This document shows, one piece after another, positions 1-49,058 of a stretch of 64,000 nt of DNA (positions are counted from its first letter, which is position 1; each line of letters starts with the position of its first letter). The position numbers and the translations under genes are program-made. Source of the stretch: a virus (Duplodnaviria > Caudoviricetes). A model generated the notes under the pieces. That model ran no database searches, was not told the DNA's origin, and saw only the letters and a program-made list of their open reading frames with translations. Where the stretch lies: positions 128,001 to 192,000 of the IMG/VR virus record IMGVR_UViG_3300011868_000001, one strand, 5' to 3'.

Positions 1-326
1 AGGTTGATGAAGGCCTTGATCCCAGTTGGGACACGGAGCCACAGGTTGGACTCCAGGGGCTTTTCGGTGATCGGTACCACCTGTGAGAGACAGATCGGAC
101 AGCGGACGTTGTAGTTGTCCATGCTGGTGATGTGCCCACAGTCACAGGAAGCGGTGTTGTTCAGCGAATCGCCATCAAGACTGGTATAGATGAGGTTGTT
201 GAGCTTAAGGCGATCTGCCTCAAGGTCGATGTTGAAGTCATTCATCAGGATCGCAGGATGCGACAGATGACGGAACAGGGTGTCGTAGTGGACTACGCGG
301 AGATAGACGCCATTACGTTCTTTCAT
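1..326 (-). CDS. Non-virion RNA polymerase beta'-like subunit, N-terminal part (phiKZ gp55-like); runs off the window
   Basis: Manual translation from ATG at 326: MKERNGVYLRVVHYDTLF...SCDCGH...RCPIC...PLESNLWLRVPTGIKAFIN. This is a beta' zinc-binding CxC..CxxC motif, directly downstream of chimallin as in phiKZ-like phages. Not in the ORF track. Confidence 0.75.
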   Translation of the reverse strand, partial: MKERNGVYLRVVHYDTLFRHLSHPAILMNDFNIDLEADRLKLNNLIYTSLDGDSLNNTASCDCGHITSMDNYNVRCPICLSQVVPITEKPLESNLWLRVPTGIKAFIN

Positions 327-376
327 CAACTTTGGCCCTTAAGTGTAGTGGCGATGAAAAATAAAAGACATAGCTC

Positions 377-8341: not shown

Positions 8342-8735
8342 CGGATATTCTCACTATGACACTGTCATCAGCCGGATCATAGCTGAGCAGTTCAGTGAGA
8401 AGGGAGTCTACATCACGGTATCTACTCAGTTGTCCGGCAAGGTCTTTGAAAAGAGCGGTCGCAAGATCATAGGCTTCATCTACCTCGACCATCAAGCGGA
8501 CCATTGAAGCATGACCATATCTGTGCCTGTCCATCCAATAACTGAGCACTTCACCATACTCTGCTGCAAGGTTGTTTTTAATCACCCCGCGTAGTGCACA
8601 CGGAACAACCGCGATCAGCAGATCAGGTTTTACACTTGAGAGCCATCCCTTTTCGGCGCGGAGCATGAGCGTCAGGGGTAGTTGTGGTGGCTCCCATGGC
8701 CAGCGGGACGATTTCGACGCAGGCAATATTTGCAT
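8331..8735 (-). CDS. Hypothetical protein (true start probably 8666 or later)
   Basis: ORF in the operon; overlaps its upstream neighbour. Confidence 0.5.
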   Translation of the reverse strand: MQILPASKSSRWPWEPPQLPLTLMLRAEKGWLSSVKPDLLIAVVPCALRGVIKNNLAAEYGEVLSYWMDRHRYGHASMVRLMVEVDEAYDLATALFKDLAGQLSRYRDVDSLLTELLSYDPADDSVIVRISDGW

Positions 8736-42652: not shown

Positions 42653-45600
42653 CTACTTGGTGTCATTGGCCGTCCACATCTCAGCGGCTTTTTCACCGAT
42701 GGCAGTCAGCACGGAGATGGACATCCCGATCAGCAACGCTGACAGAACGATTCGGTCCATGACCGACTTGGCGCCGAAGATGGCATTGATCTGTTTCCCA
42801 GACTCTGTTTCGTTCACCCCACTTAAGCGATGACCAACCACAGTTTTCATCTGGTTGCAGAACACTGCCTTATCGCCCACGCCCATGCCTTCCCGGTGAG
42901 TGATGTAGACTTTGATAGCAACGTGATCGAGTTCCAACCCGTTCCCATCGATCCGCAGGGACTGGTCGACCTGACCTGTGACAACTGGCTTGCCCAAGCG
43001 CTTAGCCATCTTGCGACGACGTTTGTCATGGGCACTGACCAACTCCAACAACGAATCAGACATGTCGTCAGTATCGCCGTGATAGAACACCTCGATCTTC
43101 GAGACCTCGCCAACAGCCCCCGCAGTCGGGGTTGCCGAAGACATCATGCGAAGAGTTTCAAGGTCATCTTCAGAGAAGAGTCCAGAATCCGCTGTTACAG
43201 CATCTTCAATCGTGCATAAGATACTCGTGATGTCCGTGTGGTCGCCTTCCTTGACAAGATTACGGATGGTTTGATCAAACCGTACCACGATGGTCTTGAC
43301 CTTCGTTACTTCAGAGCCCAGCTGCTTTGCCAGCCAGTCATCCATGGCCGAGGAGTCTTCCAGGGTGTAGGATGCTTCCATCAATGCAGTCCGAGCAATG
43401 ACCCCTGCCTTCCACTGCACCTGGTGACGGTGGAAACGACTCGGCTTAAAGAAGCCCGAGTTGTACTTGAGGATATCGCCTTTCTTGACTTTATCGCCCA
43501 ACTGGAAAGAGGTTGCCTGTTTCTGCGGATAGACCGACCCGGCTGAGATGCCGTACTGCGTTGTCAGGTCGATGTGCTCGAACGTACCGTCCTCGTATGC
43601 CACCACCATGTGTTCATCGCTAAGCTCAACGACTTCACCATCTTTCGCAGCCGGCATGGCAAAGATCTCATCGACCCGATGGGCCAATACATGGTCATAG
43701 CCGGTGGAGATTGGCGACTCCCGGTAGCCTTCCGAGGAGATCACATGTGATTGCTGAATACCGATAAAGTTCACCCGCTTAGGGTCGTCTCGATCGGAGA
43801 ACGGCGAGATCAGTGCCGAGGTCGAAACAATGTTCGCTGAGCCGTCTTGTTCCTTATCGAACTCACGAACCGTCCCACGCACACTGGTGATGTTGGCATT
43901 GGGTGACATGTAGGTGATTACCGCCACATCGCCCGAGTCCACCGTACTTTCGGAAATGAACCCGATGTCGCTTTCCTTATACAGTCGAGCTTCTGCGGTC
44001 ATCGACCGACCACTGCGTCCGCCTCGACCACCGTAGGTGATGATTTCCTTCTGCTTGAGGTTCTGGATGGGGTTGATGTCATCGACCAGCGCACTGGCCG
44101 GGTCCTGCACGATATTCGTCCAGACTTCGTGCGGCTTCATGGTCACTTGCGAGTTGTTGCTGGCATTGCGCGAGTTGTAGACTCGGATGGACCGAACCAA
44201 CTCCCCGTACACCGCCCCTGGAATACGCTCATAACCCTTCGCCCGTTCCAGCCCTTCGACCAGTCCGTCAGCCCCTTCGACTTTATTTGGAACGTACCGC
44301 GTTACCAGCAGTTCACAGGCCCGTACCAACAACGGCACAAACTCAGTCGGCTCCTTCATCCATTCGAGCACGCCCTTGGTGATCGGATCGACCCACATGG
44401 CGTTCATCAGATCAAGCTCGCGCAGATAGCGCAGACCGATGTTGTTGGCCTCAAGAATGTTGAAGTACACATCCTTGGCATTGAAGCTGTGGCGACTGAA
44501 GTTACGCACGTGTTTGTGGTAATGTAGGAACCCTGCAAAGATCAGACTCGATTTGACATCGGTCTTATCCAGTACCAGCGTTTCATCCAGAAACTTGATG
44601 GCGTATTCATCCGCACCCATTTGCAAACGAGTGCCCAACGGCACGACCCGCACCTGAGCCTTGGTCAGCTCGATCAGACGATCGAAGCCCAGCAGATACG
44701 CCAGGGCGATACCCACCGGCATGCTCTTACCGAAGATGCTGATCTCGGCCATATTGACCGGTGCTTTATCCATGGGCAGGCCCAGGACTTCCTCAATTGG
44801 GCCGATTGGTGTTGCATCGTCGCTATTGGGTTTGACCAGATAGAAGATGTTATCCGGCGCCACCATGATGTACTGATTGCCCCGCTTACCGCAGACCACC
44901 CATTTCTTGAAGCGATTTTCCAGTTCTTCAACGACCGCCATGTCAAACAGCTTGGCACGATGACGGTTCTTGTAATCGAACCAGTAACTGCCGTTGGCTT
45001 CGAAACTGAATACTCGACTGGCGGTGATGGTGTAGATCGTCGGTAGATCAAGCGAGAAGTCTGCCACGTTGGCGATCTTCACATTCTTGATGCTCTCATC
45101 GGCCGGATCGAGACCCTTGGCAATGATTTGCTTACCCACCCAGTTGTCGTAGTTGAACACCGACCGTTGCGACCGGTCAACGAACACCTTGCTGTAGTAC
45201 GAGGTCAGGGCCACCCGCGAGTCATTGACTTTGCGGATAGGGACGTCAGCCTTCTGCGTACGCATGCGGTAGCGCTGGCCGTTGGAGGTGTAGACCCCGC
45301 GTTTGTCCACCACAGGAACCCGGAATGAGATGGTCGAAGGCTTGCCAGTCACCGGCGTCAGTTGAATCTTGTGGACTTCATAATGACTGACTGCATCCTG
45401 CACGGTTTCAACCGTATACCCCGTAACCGCGATGCCGGCTTTCTGCACGGACATGACCGCATTCAGGATATCCTTGTTCATCACCTTTTCGATGTACTGA
45501 CTGTCCATTTTCTCAACAGTCGATTGCAGCATCGATTCATCCCGCACCGCATCGGTCTTCGGATACGTGTCAGCTTCGCCCAGGACCAGATCATCATTGG

Positions 45601-47035
45601 GGATGTCCAGCGACTCTTCGATCGTTTTGCTACTGTCCCATGGGTTGGGGATGGTCTTGTAGCTTTCCGCCAACCGTTGCATCCGCCGATATTGCGCGGC
45701 AGTGTACAGGTCCTTTTCCACCAGCTCATCGAGCTTGGCATGGATCGTACTGGTCAGGGTGTGTTCGATATTGCTGGTCCCGACCGCCGCCGGTACATCG
45801 ACCCGCTCATCAGGAGAAGACTCGATGATCAGCTCGCCATCTTCATCCATCATGATGGCGTCGCTATCCGTTACCGGAGTATCGAGTTCAGCCGACAGCT
45901 CTTCTTCTTCCTCACGGGCCAGCTCAAGAGCGTTGCCAGATTCCTGAAGAATGCGTTCTTCTGCCTCAGCCTCTTCTCGCGCTTCCTCTTCACTGCGCTC
46001 AGCTTCGAGTTCCTGTGCATCGTCACTGGTATCGACTACGGCACTGGTTTGATCCACCACCTTGGTCAGCAGCTTAAGGAACCTGATCTGAATGATTTTC
46101 GGATCGAGACCCTGGGGCGATTCCAGCGAGGCTTCGAACAGCCCATCGACAGGCGTACAGTCACCGGCATTTTCCAGCGAGACGTATTCGTCGTAGAGTG
46201 CATCGAAGTCGAAGTTCTCCTCGGCCTCGGGAGCCTTGAACGATTCCATCGACACACCGGCATCAGCCTTGCGCCAGCCATTGAGAAGCCCGAGGTTGAT
46301 CGTCAACCAACCGGTGTCGCGACGGATCAGCAGGATGACTTCATTCAACCGTGATTCATCCAATCGAGCCATGGGGGTGCTCTTGCGGTTTTCACCCAGC
46401 CATGTCCAGATGTCGAGCAGGTCCAGTCGTTCGCGTGACGTGAACACTTTGTTCATCAACAACGGCGTCATCCCGCGTTCGGCTTTGCGCAGATCAGACA
46501 GCGATGGGAGCGACTGCGGAACATCGAAGATCACTACATGTCGACGTTCATTATCGGTCTTAAGTTGGTTGATCCGTTCCCACATGGTCGAACGAATGTT
46601 CTTCCAGTACCACCAGCGGCTCAGTGCCGAGCGCATGTACTTGTACATCTGCCCGACCATGGCGTAGTTGATCACCACCAGGTTCAACGGCTCTTTGCTC
46701 GCTGCGTCATAATCGCGCATCGGCCGGATGAGCATGTTTTCGCGGCGATACTGCTGTTGCATCGGTGCGATCAATTTATAGGTTGGTCGCGGATTACCTT
46801 CCTTTACCAGCAGATCAGCAACATGATCGATGTAAGTCAGGCGCTGACCTATATTGAGCAGCGGGTTGTCCTTATCCGGACCCAGTTCGGTTTCGGTCTG
46901 AGGCATGTAGTGCAGGGCACTGCCACGCGGCAGGGTCAGGCGCGAGATCGGCCTGACCTTAGGGTTTTCCAGACCGCCCAGCCGCAAGATACCAAAGAGC
47001 TTGATAAAGCGGTCATACTGAAACATTACGGCCAT
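42653..47035 (-). CDS. Virion RNA polymerase beta subunit, N-terminal/large part (phiKZ gp178-like)
   Basis: 1460 aa with DDPKR..QQSH, EDS and GDKAVFCNQMKT beta motifs. Confidence 0.88.
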   Translation of the reverse strand: MAVMFQYDRFIKLFGILRLGGLENPKVRPISRLTLPRGSALHYMPQTETELGPDKDNPLLNIGQRLTYIDHVADLLVKEGNPRPTYKLIAPMQQQYRRENMLIRPMRDYDAASKEPLNLVVINYAMVGQMYKYMRSALSRWWYWKNIRSTMWERINQLKTDNERRHVVIFDVPQSLPSLSDLRKAERGMTPLLMNKVFTSRERLDLLDIWTWLGENRKSTPMARLDESRLNEVILLIRRDTGWLTINLGLLNGWRKADAGVSMESFKAPEAEENFDFDALYDEYVSLENAGDCTPVDGLFEASLESPQGLDPKIIQIRFLKLLTKVVDQTSAVVDTSDDAQELEAERSEEEAREEAEAEERILQESGNALELAREEEEELSAELDTPVTDSDAIMMDEDGELIIESSPDERVDVPAAVGTSNIEHTLTSTIHAKLDELVEKDLYTAAQYRRMQRLAESYKTIPNPWDSSKTIEESLDIPNDDLVLGEADTYPKTDAVRDESMLQSTVEKMDSQYIEKVMNKDILNAVMSVQKAGIAVTGYTVETVQDAVSHYEVHKIQLTPVTGKPSTISFRVPVVDKRGVYTSNGQRYRMRTQKADVPIRKVNDSRVALTSYYSKVFVDRSQRSVFNYDNWVGKQIIAKGLDPADESIKNVKIANVADFSLDLPTIYTITASRVFSFEANGSYWFDYKNRHRAKLFDMAVVEELENRFKKWVVCGKRGNQYIMVAPDNIFYLVKPNSDDATPIGPIEEVLGLPMDKAPVNMAEISIFGKSMPVGIALAYLLGFDRLIELTKAQVRVVPLGTRLQMGADEYAIKFLDETLVLDKTDVKSSLIFAGFLHYHKHVRNFSRHSFNAKDVYFNILEANNIGLRYLRELDLMNAMWVDPITKGVLEWMKEPTEFVPLLVRACELLVTRYVPNKVEGADGLVEGLERAKGYERIPGAVYGELVRSIRVYNSRNASNNSQVTMKPHEVWTNIVQDPASALVDDINPIQNLKQKEIITYGGRGGRSGRSMTAEARLYKESDIGFISESTVDSGDVAVITYMSPNANITSVRGTVREFDKEQDGSANIVSTSALISPFSDRDDPKRVNFIGIQQSHVISSEGYRESPISTGYDHVLAHRVDEIFAMPAAKDGEVVELSDEHMVVAYEDGTFEHIDLTTQYGISAGSVYPQKQATSFQLGDKVKKGDILKYNSGFFKPSRFHRHQVQWKAGVIARTALMEASYTLEDSSAMDDWLAKQLGSEVTKVKTIVVRFDQTIRNLVKEGDHTDITSILCTIEDAVTADSGLFSEDDLETLRMMSSATPTAGAVGEVSKIEVFYHGDTDDMSDSLLELVSAHDKRRRKMAKRLGKPVVTGQVDQSLRIDGNGLELDHVAIKVYITHREGMGVGDKAVFCNQMKTVVGHRLSGVNETESGKQINAIFGAKSVMDRIVLSALLIGMSISVLTAIGEKAAEMWTANDTK

Positions 47036-47210
47036 GTTTGAATCGTCCTGTCAAATTGTGGATGACGTACTTGAGCGTATCGTAGTCATACGAGGCTAAG
47101 AGGCTGCCATCGGTATCGACCCAATACTGTCGAGAACGCAAGATGCGGTCATTCTCTTCGAGCGCTTCGTTGGACATCACCAAGGTCGCAGAACCGGTGT
47201 CACCGTCGAA
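47013..47210 (-). CDS. Virion RNAP beta' subunit, exon 2 (FDGDT...)
   Basis: In frame after splicing; completes the catalytic ADFDGD motif; 65 codons plus stop. Confidence 0.85.
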   Translation of the reverse strand, partial: FDGDTGSATLVMSNEALEENDRILRSRQYWVDTDGSLLASYDYDTLKYVIHNLTGRFKHGRNVSV

Positions 47211-47606
47211 CGATATCTTCAAGTAGAGTCGCAACTCTCTACCCCGTGCACTTAAGCACTGCTCCAGGTTTTCCCTGGATGTCGAGACTATATCTTCACC
47301 TTCACCCTGAGGTGGTCAGGTGTCTCCCATTTCGGAACGCTTGTTCCTACGAGGCGCTACCCCCTAGTCGTTGAACCTTCCCCATGCCATTTGGTTTAGG
47401 GGCTTGGCTGCTAAAGGGACTCTTAGAGTCCACGGTTCCCCATTGTATCATCCGTCCCGTTTTCAGACCATGGCTTTGCCTTTCGGCTCGCAGTGGTGGG
47501 ACAGCTTTAGTGGGTTCCAGCAGTTAGAGAGAGATCATTCCATCATTTCGGATGGAAGGGACTTTAAGTCATTACCGAATAGGTAGATATACGGTATTAC
47601 TTGTTA
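47211..47606 (-). ncRNA. Group I self-splicing intron without an endonuclease ORF (396 nt)
   Basis: 5' exon ends in U and the intron ends in G. P element AACUGCUGGAA (47515-47525), R element GUUCAACGACUAG (47364-47376), S element AAGAUAUAGUC (47286-47296), P9 hairpins. Confidence 0.9.
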
Positions 47607-49058
47607 ATCCGCTTGCAACCCCACAAGCTTGGTCGAGTGAGGGGACTGCGTGTCCATATAGGAGGTCGAACCGGTCATGGGAAACTCAAGGGCGACGTGT
47701 TCCTCATCTTCGTAAGGCGCCCAATCATCATCGAGTTCAACACGCCGCTCACCGACCACCGTCGTCTTGACATACACCCGACTGGCATAAATGGAGCGAT
47801 TGCCCGAGATCGGATAACGGCAAATCTGCGCGAAGTATTTGTTCCAGTAGGCATAACCACACAGGTACAGCAACTCAACCAGATTGATCGGCGACACATA
47901 CTTGCGGTCCAGGTGGGCCGGCATGTCATGAATGTCGTAGAAGATCTTAAAGGTGCTATCCGGACCCTTGTAGATCAAGGCCAGGTAGTGTCCCTCAATC
48001 TCAATTGGACGATGACGCATGTCAACCATTTGATAGCGGTCAATGATGCTGTTCAGACCGTCGCGGGTCGTCCAGGTATCACGTACTTCAGGAGGCAGCG
48101 AGACCCAGGTGGGTCGCAGCGTCTGCTTGTCGATCAACTGGGCTTGTCCTTCACCGGACTGGATGCGTTCGCCGAATGTCCGCCGCAAGTGGTGGATGGT
48201 CACCGGCGTCAGGCCCTTGATCACCTGAAAGAGTCCAAGACTGGTGGCATCGAATCCAGGGGCGTTGGTATCGTTCAAGTTGGCAATAGAGGTGTCCATG
48301 ACGGTCAGCACGTTTCGAGTGCCGTAGACCACCCGGCGCGATGCCCACTTGTCCAGAATAAAGCCATTCTTACCAGCCAGCATGCCTTCGATCAACTCGT
48401 AGATTTCCATCATGCAGTTGGTCAGGGCATTGCGGGCGATATCCAGTGCAGGCGACTCCATGTCACTGGTCACCGGAATGGTGTTGCTGATCGACAATGC
48501 CCGATAATAAAGATCGTGGATCTCGTTCTTGGTCACCGCCCCCGTATCACTGATCTCAATGTCCCGTACCCCGGCAGGCAGAATAGGGATGTACTGCGTC
48601 AAGGCCACATCGCGATACTGGTTGATCATCTCGACCCGCATCATGCGTGTCGGGGATTTGCTCTTGCGCAGTTCCAGTTGTGGGAAATGGCGAACAAAAA
48701 AGCTGTAACCGGTCTCAGCCTTTTCCGACTTGTCTGCAATGAAGTCTTTGGTCACCGGATCGAAGATGGCAGTTTCCCGGCCGGCTATAATGCCGCGATA
48801 AATCGACTTCAGACTCATCAGGTCACGGAAGATCTTCGGATGGAAGATTCTCACCTTAAGGTCGAGGTAGGAGAAGTTGCGCCCCCGTTCATCCGACCCG
48901 ACCCGACCAAAGATCTTGGTGGAGTACAGGCCCTCATCGTGGAATTCACTGCTGGCTCCGTCGTAAATGTCGAGACTGGTCACAGGCGTCATTCGACTGA
49001 CCCGTTCCTTTGTCAACACCATGGGCCAGATTTTGGCCGGTACTTCAGCGTAGTTCAT
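47607..49058 (-). CDS. Virion RNAP beta' subunit, exon 1 (phiKZ gp180-like)
   Basis: GLYSTKIFG, GTRNV and RYP motifs; ends LVGLQAD at the intron; spliced product 549 aa. Confidence 0.88.

Follow-up and report, generated by a model that had tools for sequence, protein, structure and literature searches.

How can a phage make an intact RNA polymerase when the gene of one of its subunits is interrupted within the catalytic motif itself, and what kind of element is responsible for this interruption? The question is raised by positions 47211-47606 of the stretch of viral DNA analysed here, hereafter the window, which comprises 64,000 nucleotides (nt) and corresponds to C1:128001-192000 of a 253,747-base-pair (bp) IMG/VR virus record (IMGVR_UViG_3300011868_000001) with an estimated completeness of 96%. 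The interrupted gene comes from a phiKZ-like jumbo phage (a chimallivirus), where it encodes the beta'-N subunit of the virion RNA polymerase, and an insert of 396 nt separates the residues AD from FDGD in the subunit's magnesium-binding motif. With high probability, this insert is an IA-type self-splicing group I intron devoid of a nuclease gene, and a relative of the one that phiKZ carries at the gp180 site. The anatomy of the insert, the conservation of its structure, its exact presence/absence polymorphism and the identity of its site with that of phiKZ are observed directly.

The intron-bearing gene lies on the minus strand, which an earlier note on this DNA had not given. Its first exon codes for 484 amino acids (aa) with the C-terminus ...KLVGLQAD, followed by a TAA stop codon at 47606-47604, and the frame reopens 396 nt after exon 1, at 47210, as FDGDTGSATLVMSNEA..., running for 65 codons from FDGDTGSA to a stop codon at 47015-47013. 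Translation of both sides agrees, exact to the base, with the insert and the LQAD-TAA to FDGDTGSA junction proposed in that note. The two exon products belong to the same protein family, matching positions 2-484 (E 8.8e-166) and 484-538 of phrog_2986, respectively. When 47607 is joined to 47210, the result is a protein of 550 aa, ...LVGLQADFDGDTGSA, with the predicted peptide ...LQADFDGDTGSA across the exon junction, which aligns gap-free over residues 1-549 to intronless homologs, with identities of 84% to that of Pseudomonas phage pPa_SNUABM_DT01 (DT01) and 77-98% to those of five IMG/VR phages. DT01, which grows on Pseudomonas aeruginosa, is the nearest isolate; the exon 1 product is 84% identical to its PA10_00092, and 38% identical to phiKZ gp180 and PhiPA3 gp212. 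The last 23 nt of exon 2 are shared with the start of the next gene, an overlap also present in the DT01 annotation. The assignment to beta' is based on PHROGs, the annotations of the homologs and the motif, since Pfam gave no match for either polymerase subunit and a sequence search of the PDB gave only weak beta' matches (E 0.0013).

In all six relatives compared, namely DT01 and the five IMG/VR phages (77-98% protein identity), the gene is uninterrupted, and the exact 396-nt insert is absent from loci L004 and L007-L011, as well as from two contigs of public sequencing runs, X1 and X2. Contig X1, with no differences to the window over 46800-47210 and four over 47611-48000, skips exactly 47211-47606 and reads GCCGAC/TTCGAC, where this phage reads GCGGAT/intron/TTCGAC. 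Exon 1 ends in GCGGAT, with GAT as its last codon, in every intron-bearing allele: in this one, in those of the uncultivated phages G005 and G006 (both known from fragmentary records), in phiKZ gp180, and in the gene holding the sister intron described below. The same codon is GAC in 10/10 empty alleles examined, seven of this gene and three of its paralog. This distribution agrees with the need for a U.G pair at the 5' splice site. Compared with L007, the exon flanks show five mismatches at positions -16 to -1 and one at +6, with mismatch-free stretches of about 40 nt on either side, and four of the five upstream changes are shared with the intron-bearing allele of G005. In this small sample, such a cluster of flank changes suggests a co-conversion tract left by homing.

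The insert begins with UAA, an in-frame stop codon in the unspliced RNA; the last base of exon 1 is U (47607), and the last base of the intron is G (47211). At the 5' splice site, U 47607 forms a wobble pair with G 47562, and the AGUCC strand of P1 is kept in the four rows of the alignment described below that reach P1 with the GCGGAT splice-site context. The 33-nt block with the L1 hairpin in the loop of P1 is absent from the G005 copy, where P1 is a minimal, canonical hairpin. Further downstream, the P4-P6 domain includes a hairpin capped by a GAAA tetraloop and, as an optional element, the P6a hairpin, and three hairpins (47279-47263, 47259-47246 and 47244-47221) precede the 3' end. The group I hallmarks read by the earlier note are all present: the exon U, the terminal G, the GACUA/UAGUC pairing of P7, the GGAU:GUCC pairing of P1, the UACCG/CGGUA stem and the three hairpins of the P9 region. 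Its statement that no open reading frame (ORF) lies inside is equally borne out, in that the search of the insert for an endonuclease gene found none, the longest ORF of the sense strand having 34 aa, and the HNH_3 and GIY-YIG matches of the genome all lie outside this intron. As a separate observation, the J8/7-P7 sequence UGAAGAUAUAG (47288-47299, minus strand) is repeated as UGAAGAUAUCG at the 3' end of the intron (47211-47221), and the 3'-terminal version of the repeat is partly kept in related introns (GAAGAUAcCG, GAcaAUAaG).

The covariance-model search, which the earlier note had proposed as a check, gives a match to Rfam RF00028 (Intron_gpI) with 53.0 bits (E 1.2e-10) along 47600..47262 of the minus strand and over the full model (1-253), the gathering score of this family being 50 bits. 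The structure was also analysed through an alignment of six introns (A1), consisting of the window intron, the same-site introns of G005 and G006, the ribozyme parts of the phiKZ gp180 intron and of the sister intron, and a beta-gene intron of G006. RNAalifold finds P2, P3, P4-P6 with the GAAA hairpin, P7.1, P7.2, P8, P9, P9.1 and P9.2 in this alignment, and P7 was added by hand to the consensus before the covariation test. Standard pairs account for 96.9% of the cells, compared with 34-43% in controls where the partners were slid by 1-3 columns, and both sides have changed in 44 of the 86 pairs, compared with 5-11 in the slid controls; none of 500 shuffles reaches the observed values. The tested structure was derived from A1 itself, which favours it somewhat, even though the margin is large, and P7 is invariant across these introns and hence uninformative. 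Compensatory changes in 44 pairs, among copies that are 63-98% identical, imply selection on the RNA structure, and the group I identity is firm because of the covariation together with the presence/absence polymorphism. Regarding the subgroup, P7 and the 3' strand of P3 are separated by two extra stems, P7.1 and P7.2, which point to IA, at least as judged from the sequence, following the criteria summarised in PMC3984707.

In phiKZ, the gp180 intron occupies the same insertion point, xAD/FDGD, of the same gene. Annotated gp180 ends in ...LGAD and a stop codon, with GCGGAT/TAATTGTAATACTGTATATCTAG... at the junction, after which come gp179, a ribozyme core and the frame resuming as FDGDTVSF; gp180 is listed as interrupted and gp179 as an intron-encoded nuclease, which can be deleted (PMC11512511, PMC12676376). 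The phiKZ and window introns both read GCGGAT/TAA at the 5' junction and ...G/TTCGACGG at the 3' junction, have the same P1 (GGAU with GUCC) and an identical P7, and are 74% identical over 193 nt in the P7.1-P9.2 region. Moreover, the leader before gp179 is 86% identical over 29 nt (E 0.001) to the 5' part of the P1 loop of the window intron, and the proteins of the two host genes share 38% identity. The two differ in size and content: the phiKZ intron is about 1.44 kb long, its P1 loop holding an HNH gene of 357 aa, whereas the window intron has 396 nt and no ORF. Within Phikzvirus, the site is polymorphic as well: phiKZ and phi9_PA9 stop at AD, and KTN4, SL2, 2PS and W10-2 read through.

According to the earlier note, introns occur in this gene in related jumbo phages, which holds for phiKZ gp180/gp179 and fails for PhiPA3, where gp212, the homolog of the window gene, is annotated as uninterrupted and gp210 follows gp211. 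Comparison of the insertion sites thus places the window intron at the phiKZ gp180 site and in a different gene from the PhiPA3 gp210 intron, and the latter, invoked there as the parallel, belongs to the neighbouring beta gene, gp211/209. This gp210 intron interrupts the beta gene after a pair of conserved aspartates, in the region of D675 in E. coli RpoB, and gp210 nicks the homologous site of phiKZ gp178 (D1072) (PMC11620839), giving PhiPA3 an advantage over phiKZ in what represents a competition by means of an intron nuclease (PMC11620839, Birkholz et al. 2024). It is located in the same virion polymerase operon of a chimallivirus, and, in its 3' half, shares 72% identity with nt 195-368 of the window intron. 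However, it lies in beta and not in beta', interrupts a different motif and holds a nuclease gene, and its site is empty in the present phage, whose beta gene is continuous, including residues 597 and 1084, where relatives hold introns.

The layout of phiKZ and PhiPA3 is reciprocal, with beta' (gp180) interrupted and beta (gp178) empty in the former, and beta' (gp212) empty and beta (gp211/209) interrupted in the latter. Each phage could in principle attack the other, and the published direction, in the papers covered, is that of gp210 only. The virion polymerase operon contains three introns in G005 and likewise in G006, at AD/FDGD of beta', at beta residue ~597 and at beta residue ~1084, which is the PhiPA3 gp210 site. 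Only the intron of G005 at beta residue 1084 contains an HNH gene, and P9/P9.1 of its G006 counterpart are nearly identical to those of the window intron, suggesting recombination between introns at different sites. Further virion-operon introns of uncultivated relatives are seen in loci L014 (G002) and L040.

The genome of the present phage has three matches to RF00028, which are this intron, another one in thyA, and a sister intron just to the left of the window, in the gene of the non-virion RNA polymerase beta'-N (gene region C1:125459-128338; L003, L028). In its P1 loop, where the window intron has the 24-nt hairpin, this sister intron holds an intact HNH_3/NUMOD1 gene of 331 aa (L003:1806-2801, minus strand). 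Its exon flanks, GCGGAT/TACGACGGTGA, are identical at 16/17 positions to those of the window intron, GCGGAT/TTCGACGGTGA. From the guide sequence to the 3' end, over 367 nt, the two ribozymes share 77% identity, and in the core 83%, with compensatory changes in the P2, P3, P7.1, P7.2 and P9 stems. Both have the same P1, with a different 5' leader. Exon 2 of the sister's host gene has 64 codons, which gene callers would miss. The non-virion gene is uninterrupted in G001, G003 and DT01, with GAC at -1, and no convincing group I introns were found in G001 and DT01. In the phiKZ counterpart, gp55/gp56, the only in-frame U...G solution places the intron 6 nt upstream, at N/ADFDGD.

How, then, would the phage obtain an intact subunit? 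From this anatomy, we infer that the insert is removed by splicing. P1 would be formed by the exon sequence GGAU plus the first U of the intron with AGUCC, leaving the splice-site U opposite a G, and guanosine-initiated splicing would then join GCGGAU to UUCGAC, restoring the 550-aa subunit. Unspliced RNA would instead stop at the UAA that opens the intron and give a 484-aa product without two of the three catalytic aspartates. The intact subunit needs splicing because the insert sits between AD and FDGD of this beta'-like subunit, so the dependence on splicing claimed in the earlier note stands. The intron would have entered this lineage by homing from a G005-like intron-bearing donor, with about 16 nt of upstream exon being co-converted, and would itself descend from a nuclease-bearing form. 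Its further spread, and any protection from cleavage, would depend on a nuclease acting in trans, most likely the HNH enzyme that the sister intron encodes, this intron occupying the corresponding position in the non-virion polymerase gene of this genome.

Several points weigh against this interpretation. The spliced junction was not found in RNA in four public sequencing runs. Contigs X1 (12.6 kb) and X2 (10.4 kb) carry the joined form with different flank codons, and we take these for empty alleles, not for spliced RNA, because the contigs extend kilobases to both sides and one of the libraries is probably DNA; the contigs of RNA libraries cover parts of the intron only, and many of them stem from the conserved cores of other introns. 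Under the conditions of that study, ONT-cappable-seq of phiKZ saw no splicing of the RNA polymerase introns predicted for this phage (10.1101/2023.10.13.562163). P1 of the window intron has just 5 bp, and P10 no more than 2 bp. The whole-genome Rfam run gives 43.1 bits over a shorter span (47563..47262), below the cut-off, which, together with the proximity of 53.0 bits to the gathering score, makes the Rfam score alone marginal. Concerning the origin of the intron, its core shares just 63% identity with the phiKZ gp180 intron, so that common descent of these two same-site introns is uncertain; the case for nuclease loss is built on the leader similarity of about 30 nt (E 0.001); and the resident HNH protein is nearest to phiKZ gp56 (30%) among the six intron-encoded nucleases compared, its role as a helper being a conjecture.

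Did this intron lose a nuclease gene, or did it never have one? Judging from sequence comparisons, a loss seems somewhat more probable than not. The motif UAUAUCUA of the P1 loop (47584-47591, minus strand) recurs in the phiKZ leader just upstream of the start of gp179 (L027 3743-3752), and is kept by the G006 copy in a different hairpin (L013 about 8687-8696); it may be a relic expression signal of the lost nuclease gene. A contig from an oligo-dT RNA library labelled as marine metagenome (X8) matches intron nt 31-244 with 99% identity, nt 241-391 are covered by a second X8 contig, and both lie on window 47216-47576. Upstream of intron nt 31, the former continues for 217 nt into unrelated sequence ending in ...TTGTTGTAA, with a stop codon, which may represent the 3' part of a nuclease ORF, and the contigs could stem from the excised or unspliced RNA, or from the DNA, of a nuclease-bearing sister copy of the window intron. 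Exact-pattern scans of IMG/VR and JGI metagenomes found no nuclease-bearing twin. Alternatively, the intron would always have been an ORF-less ribozyme whose insertion site is also that of nucleases encoded at other loci (collaborative or trans homing), and the phiKZ form would have arisen when a nuclease gene invaded the P1 loop, a scenario that we regard as possible, although on the unlikely side. All three same-site copies in the metagenomic clade lack an ORF (396 nt here, 362 nt in G005, 353 nt in G006), the minimal P1 of G005 and the core identity of 63% to the phiKZ gp180 intron are consistent with it, and both the trans homing of ORF-less introns and the invasion by nuclease genes are known in phages (PMC3984707, PMC2790892). 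Against this, the P1-loop leader that phiKZ shares upstream of gp179, UAUAUCUA included, is easier to explain as a remnant, the X8 contig from the RNA library may be nuclease-bearing, and the sister intron of the same genome holds its nuclease gene in exactly this loop.

Two further explanations take splicing, or the shielding effect, as their subject. If the insert were the relic of a dead intron, the gene would effectively be split, and proteins of 484 aa and about 73 aa (from a TTG at 47234) would assemble non-covalently. Such an arrangement could draw on the fact that jumbo-phage polymerases naturally consist of several polypeptides (annotations of PhiPA3 and phiKZ), on the in-frame TTG located 8 codons upstream of FDGD with a purine-rich stretch before it, and on the long-read transcriptomics of phiKZ already mentioned, where splicing of the predicted introns was not seen. 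However, the split would leave the first aspartate of DFDGD on one chain and the remaining two on the other, compensatory changes in 44 pairs maintain the fold of the ribozyme, a U at -1 goes strictly with the presence of the intron, and six of six intronless relatives code for one continuous chain; a dead relic is very improbable. The earlier note had also proposed that the intron may persist as a shield against nucleases of the PhiPA3 gp210 type. An intron splitting a homing site does immunise the allele against the cognate nuclease (PMC3984707), and gp210 does favour PhiPA3 over phiKZ (PMC11620839), but the target of gp210 is another gene, beta, at two conserved aspartates (phiKZ gp178 D1072), and PhiPA3's own copy of the window gene has no intron. 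The window intron cannot shield against a gp210-type enzyme because the gp210 site lies in the beta gene, which is continuous here, at residues 597 and 1084 alike, and the proposal deserves hardly any credence.

A nuclease-less intron that depends on an enzyme from elsewhere, as favoured here, has known counterparts in the T4 nrdB intron/I-TevIII with mobE and in the cyanophage psbA intron with F-CphI, where a nuclease-less or defective intron sits in a conserved catalytic site, is perhaps served by a nuclease from elsewhere, and disrupts the nuclease target (PMC2790892, PMC6083498, PMC3984707). Contrary to these systems, there is no adjacent free-standing nuclease gene in the present case, and the candidate helper is encoded within a paralogous intron, at a distance of about 48 kb. 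A single nuclease might even account for the two introns: the resident HNH enzyme would recognise the near-identical (N)AD(F/Y)DGD DNA in both paralogs, would have driven the ectopic homing of its ribozyme into the virion paralog, or the reverse, and the nuclease-less copy would be kept as protection from the phage's own and rival nucleases. We put this forward tentatively and consider it unlikely. The core tree of the introns is weakly supported (0.5-0.9) and does not tell from which of the two polymerase sites to the other the element moved, and the 30% identity of the resident HNH protein to phiKZ gp56, its nearest match, does not decide this either. The G005 and G006 records are fragments without the non-virion gene and so carry no information on whether its nuclease co-occurs with the virion-gene intron. 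If true, the two catalytic centres of the chimallivirus polymerases would be linked by one selfish element as a self-immunity pair.

The coordinates of the features are collected in Table 1. Elsewhere in the genome, the ORF-less group I intron that interrupts thyA, the gene of thymidylate synthase (C1:59235-59483; L001 1501-1749, minus strand; 84.6 bits) brings the T4 td intron to mind. Two other ORFs outside the detected introns are candidate free-standing homing endonucleases: a second HNH_3 ORF (207-aa open frame, C1:119889-120008) and a GIY-YIG ORF (117-aa open frame, C1:107451-107666). The apparent three-piece gene of Serratia phage 2050HW, which was considered as a further case, consists of overlapping frameshifts and holds no introns.

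Table 1. Exons, intron elements and related polymerase genes (window positions, unless C1 is given).
Feature	Coordinates	Strand	Basis or remarks
Exon 1, virion RNA polymerase beta'-N subunit gene (phiKZ gp180 / PhiPA3 gp212 homolog)	49058..47607	minus	translation, PHROGs
Exon 2	47210..47013	minus	65 codons from FDGDTGSA + stop
Group I intron, 396 nt, no ORF	47606..47211	minus	Rfam, covariation, absence from relatives
P1: exon GGAU + intron U (47610-47606) with AGUCC (47563-47559)	47559..47610	minus	sequence reading
L1 hairpin in P1 loop: UACCG (47596-47592) with CGGUA (47577-47573)	47596-47573	minus	24 nt
P2 hairpin	47538..47557	minus	6/7 pairs with compensatory changes
P3 5' strand (47532-47527) and P4-P6 domain	47380..47532	minus	P3: double changes in 4/6 pairs
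P7 5' strand GACUA (47369-47365), then P7.1 and P7.2	47334..47369	minus	P7.1 3/4, P7.2 5/5 pairs compensatory
P3 3' strand (47328-47323), P8 (47322-47297), J8/7, P7 3' strand UAGUC (47290-47286)	47286..47328	minus	Rfam alignment, covariation
P9, P9.1, P9.2 hairpins and terminal G 47211	47211..47279	minus	P9.2: 5/7 pairs compensatory
Virion RNA polymerase beta subunit gene (phiKZ gp178 / PhiPA3 gp211+209 homolog)	47035..42653	minus	1460 aa, phrog_3148 1524.6 bits
Non-virion RNA polymerase beta'-N gene, 5' end	338..1	minus	sister intron just left of window
Sister intron, 1404 nt, at NAD/YDGD of non-virion beta'-N	C1:127057..125654	minus	gene region C1:125459-128338 (L003, L028)

What the window intron represents is, and this is well supported, an ORF-less case of a class that is known, its insertion site having been described before in phiKZ, and not a new kind of element. 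The splitting of a homing site with the resulting immunity is likewise a textbook consequence and no new mechanism (PMC3984707). New here are the paired paralogous introns, the tie of GAT and GAC to the presence and absence of the intron, and the cluster of flank changes, and the interest of the locus comes mainly from the first of them.

For the annotation of these phages, gene callers end the subunit at ...QAD and miss the 65-codon exon 2, as is still the case for phiKZ gp180, and annotation of this style misleads catalytic-motif surveys of jumbo-phage polymerases. More generally, the codons of the universal magnesium-binding motif represent a recurrent landing site for group I introns, both in the virion and in the non-virion enzymes. 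After the work on the competition between PhiPA3 and phiKZ, this phage offers a natural pair of introns, one nuclease-bearing and one nuclease-less, at near-identical targets, which is suited to questions of trans homing and self-protection.

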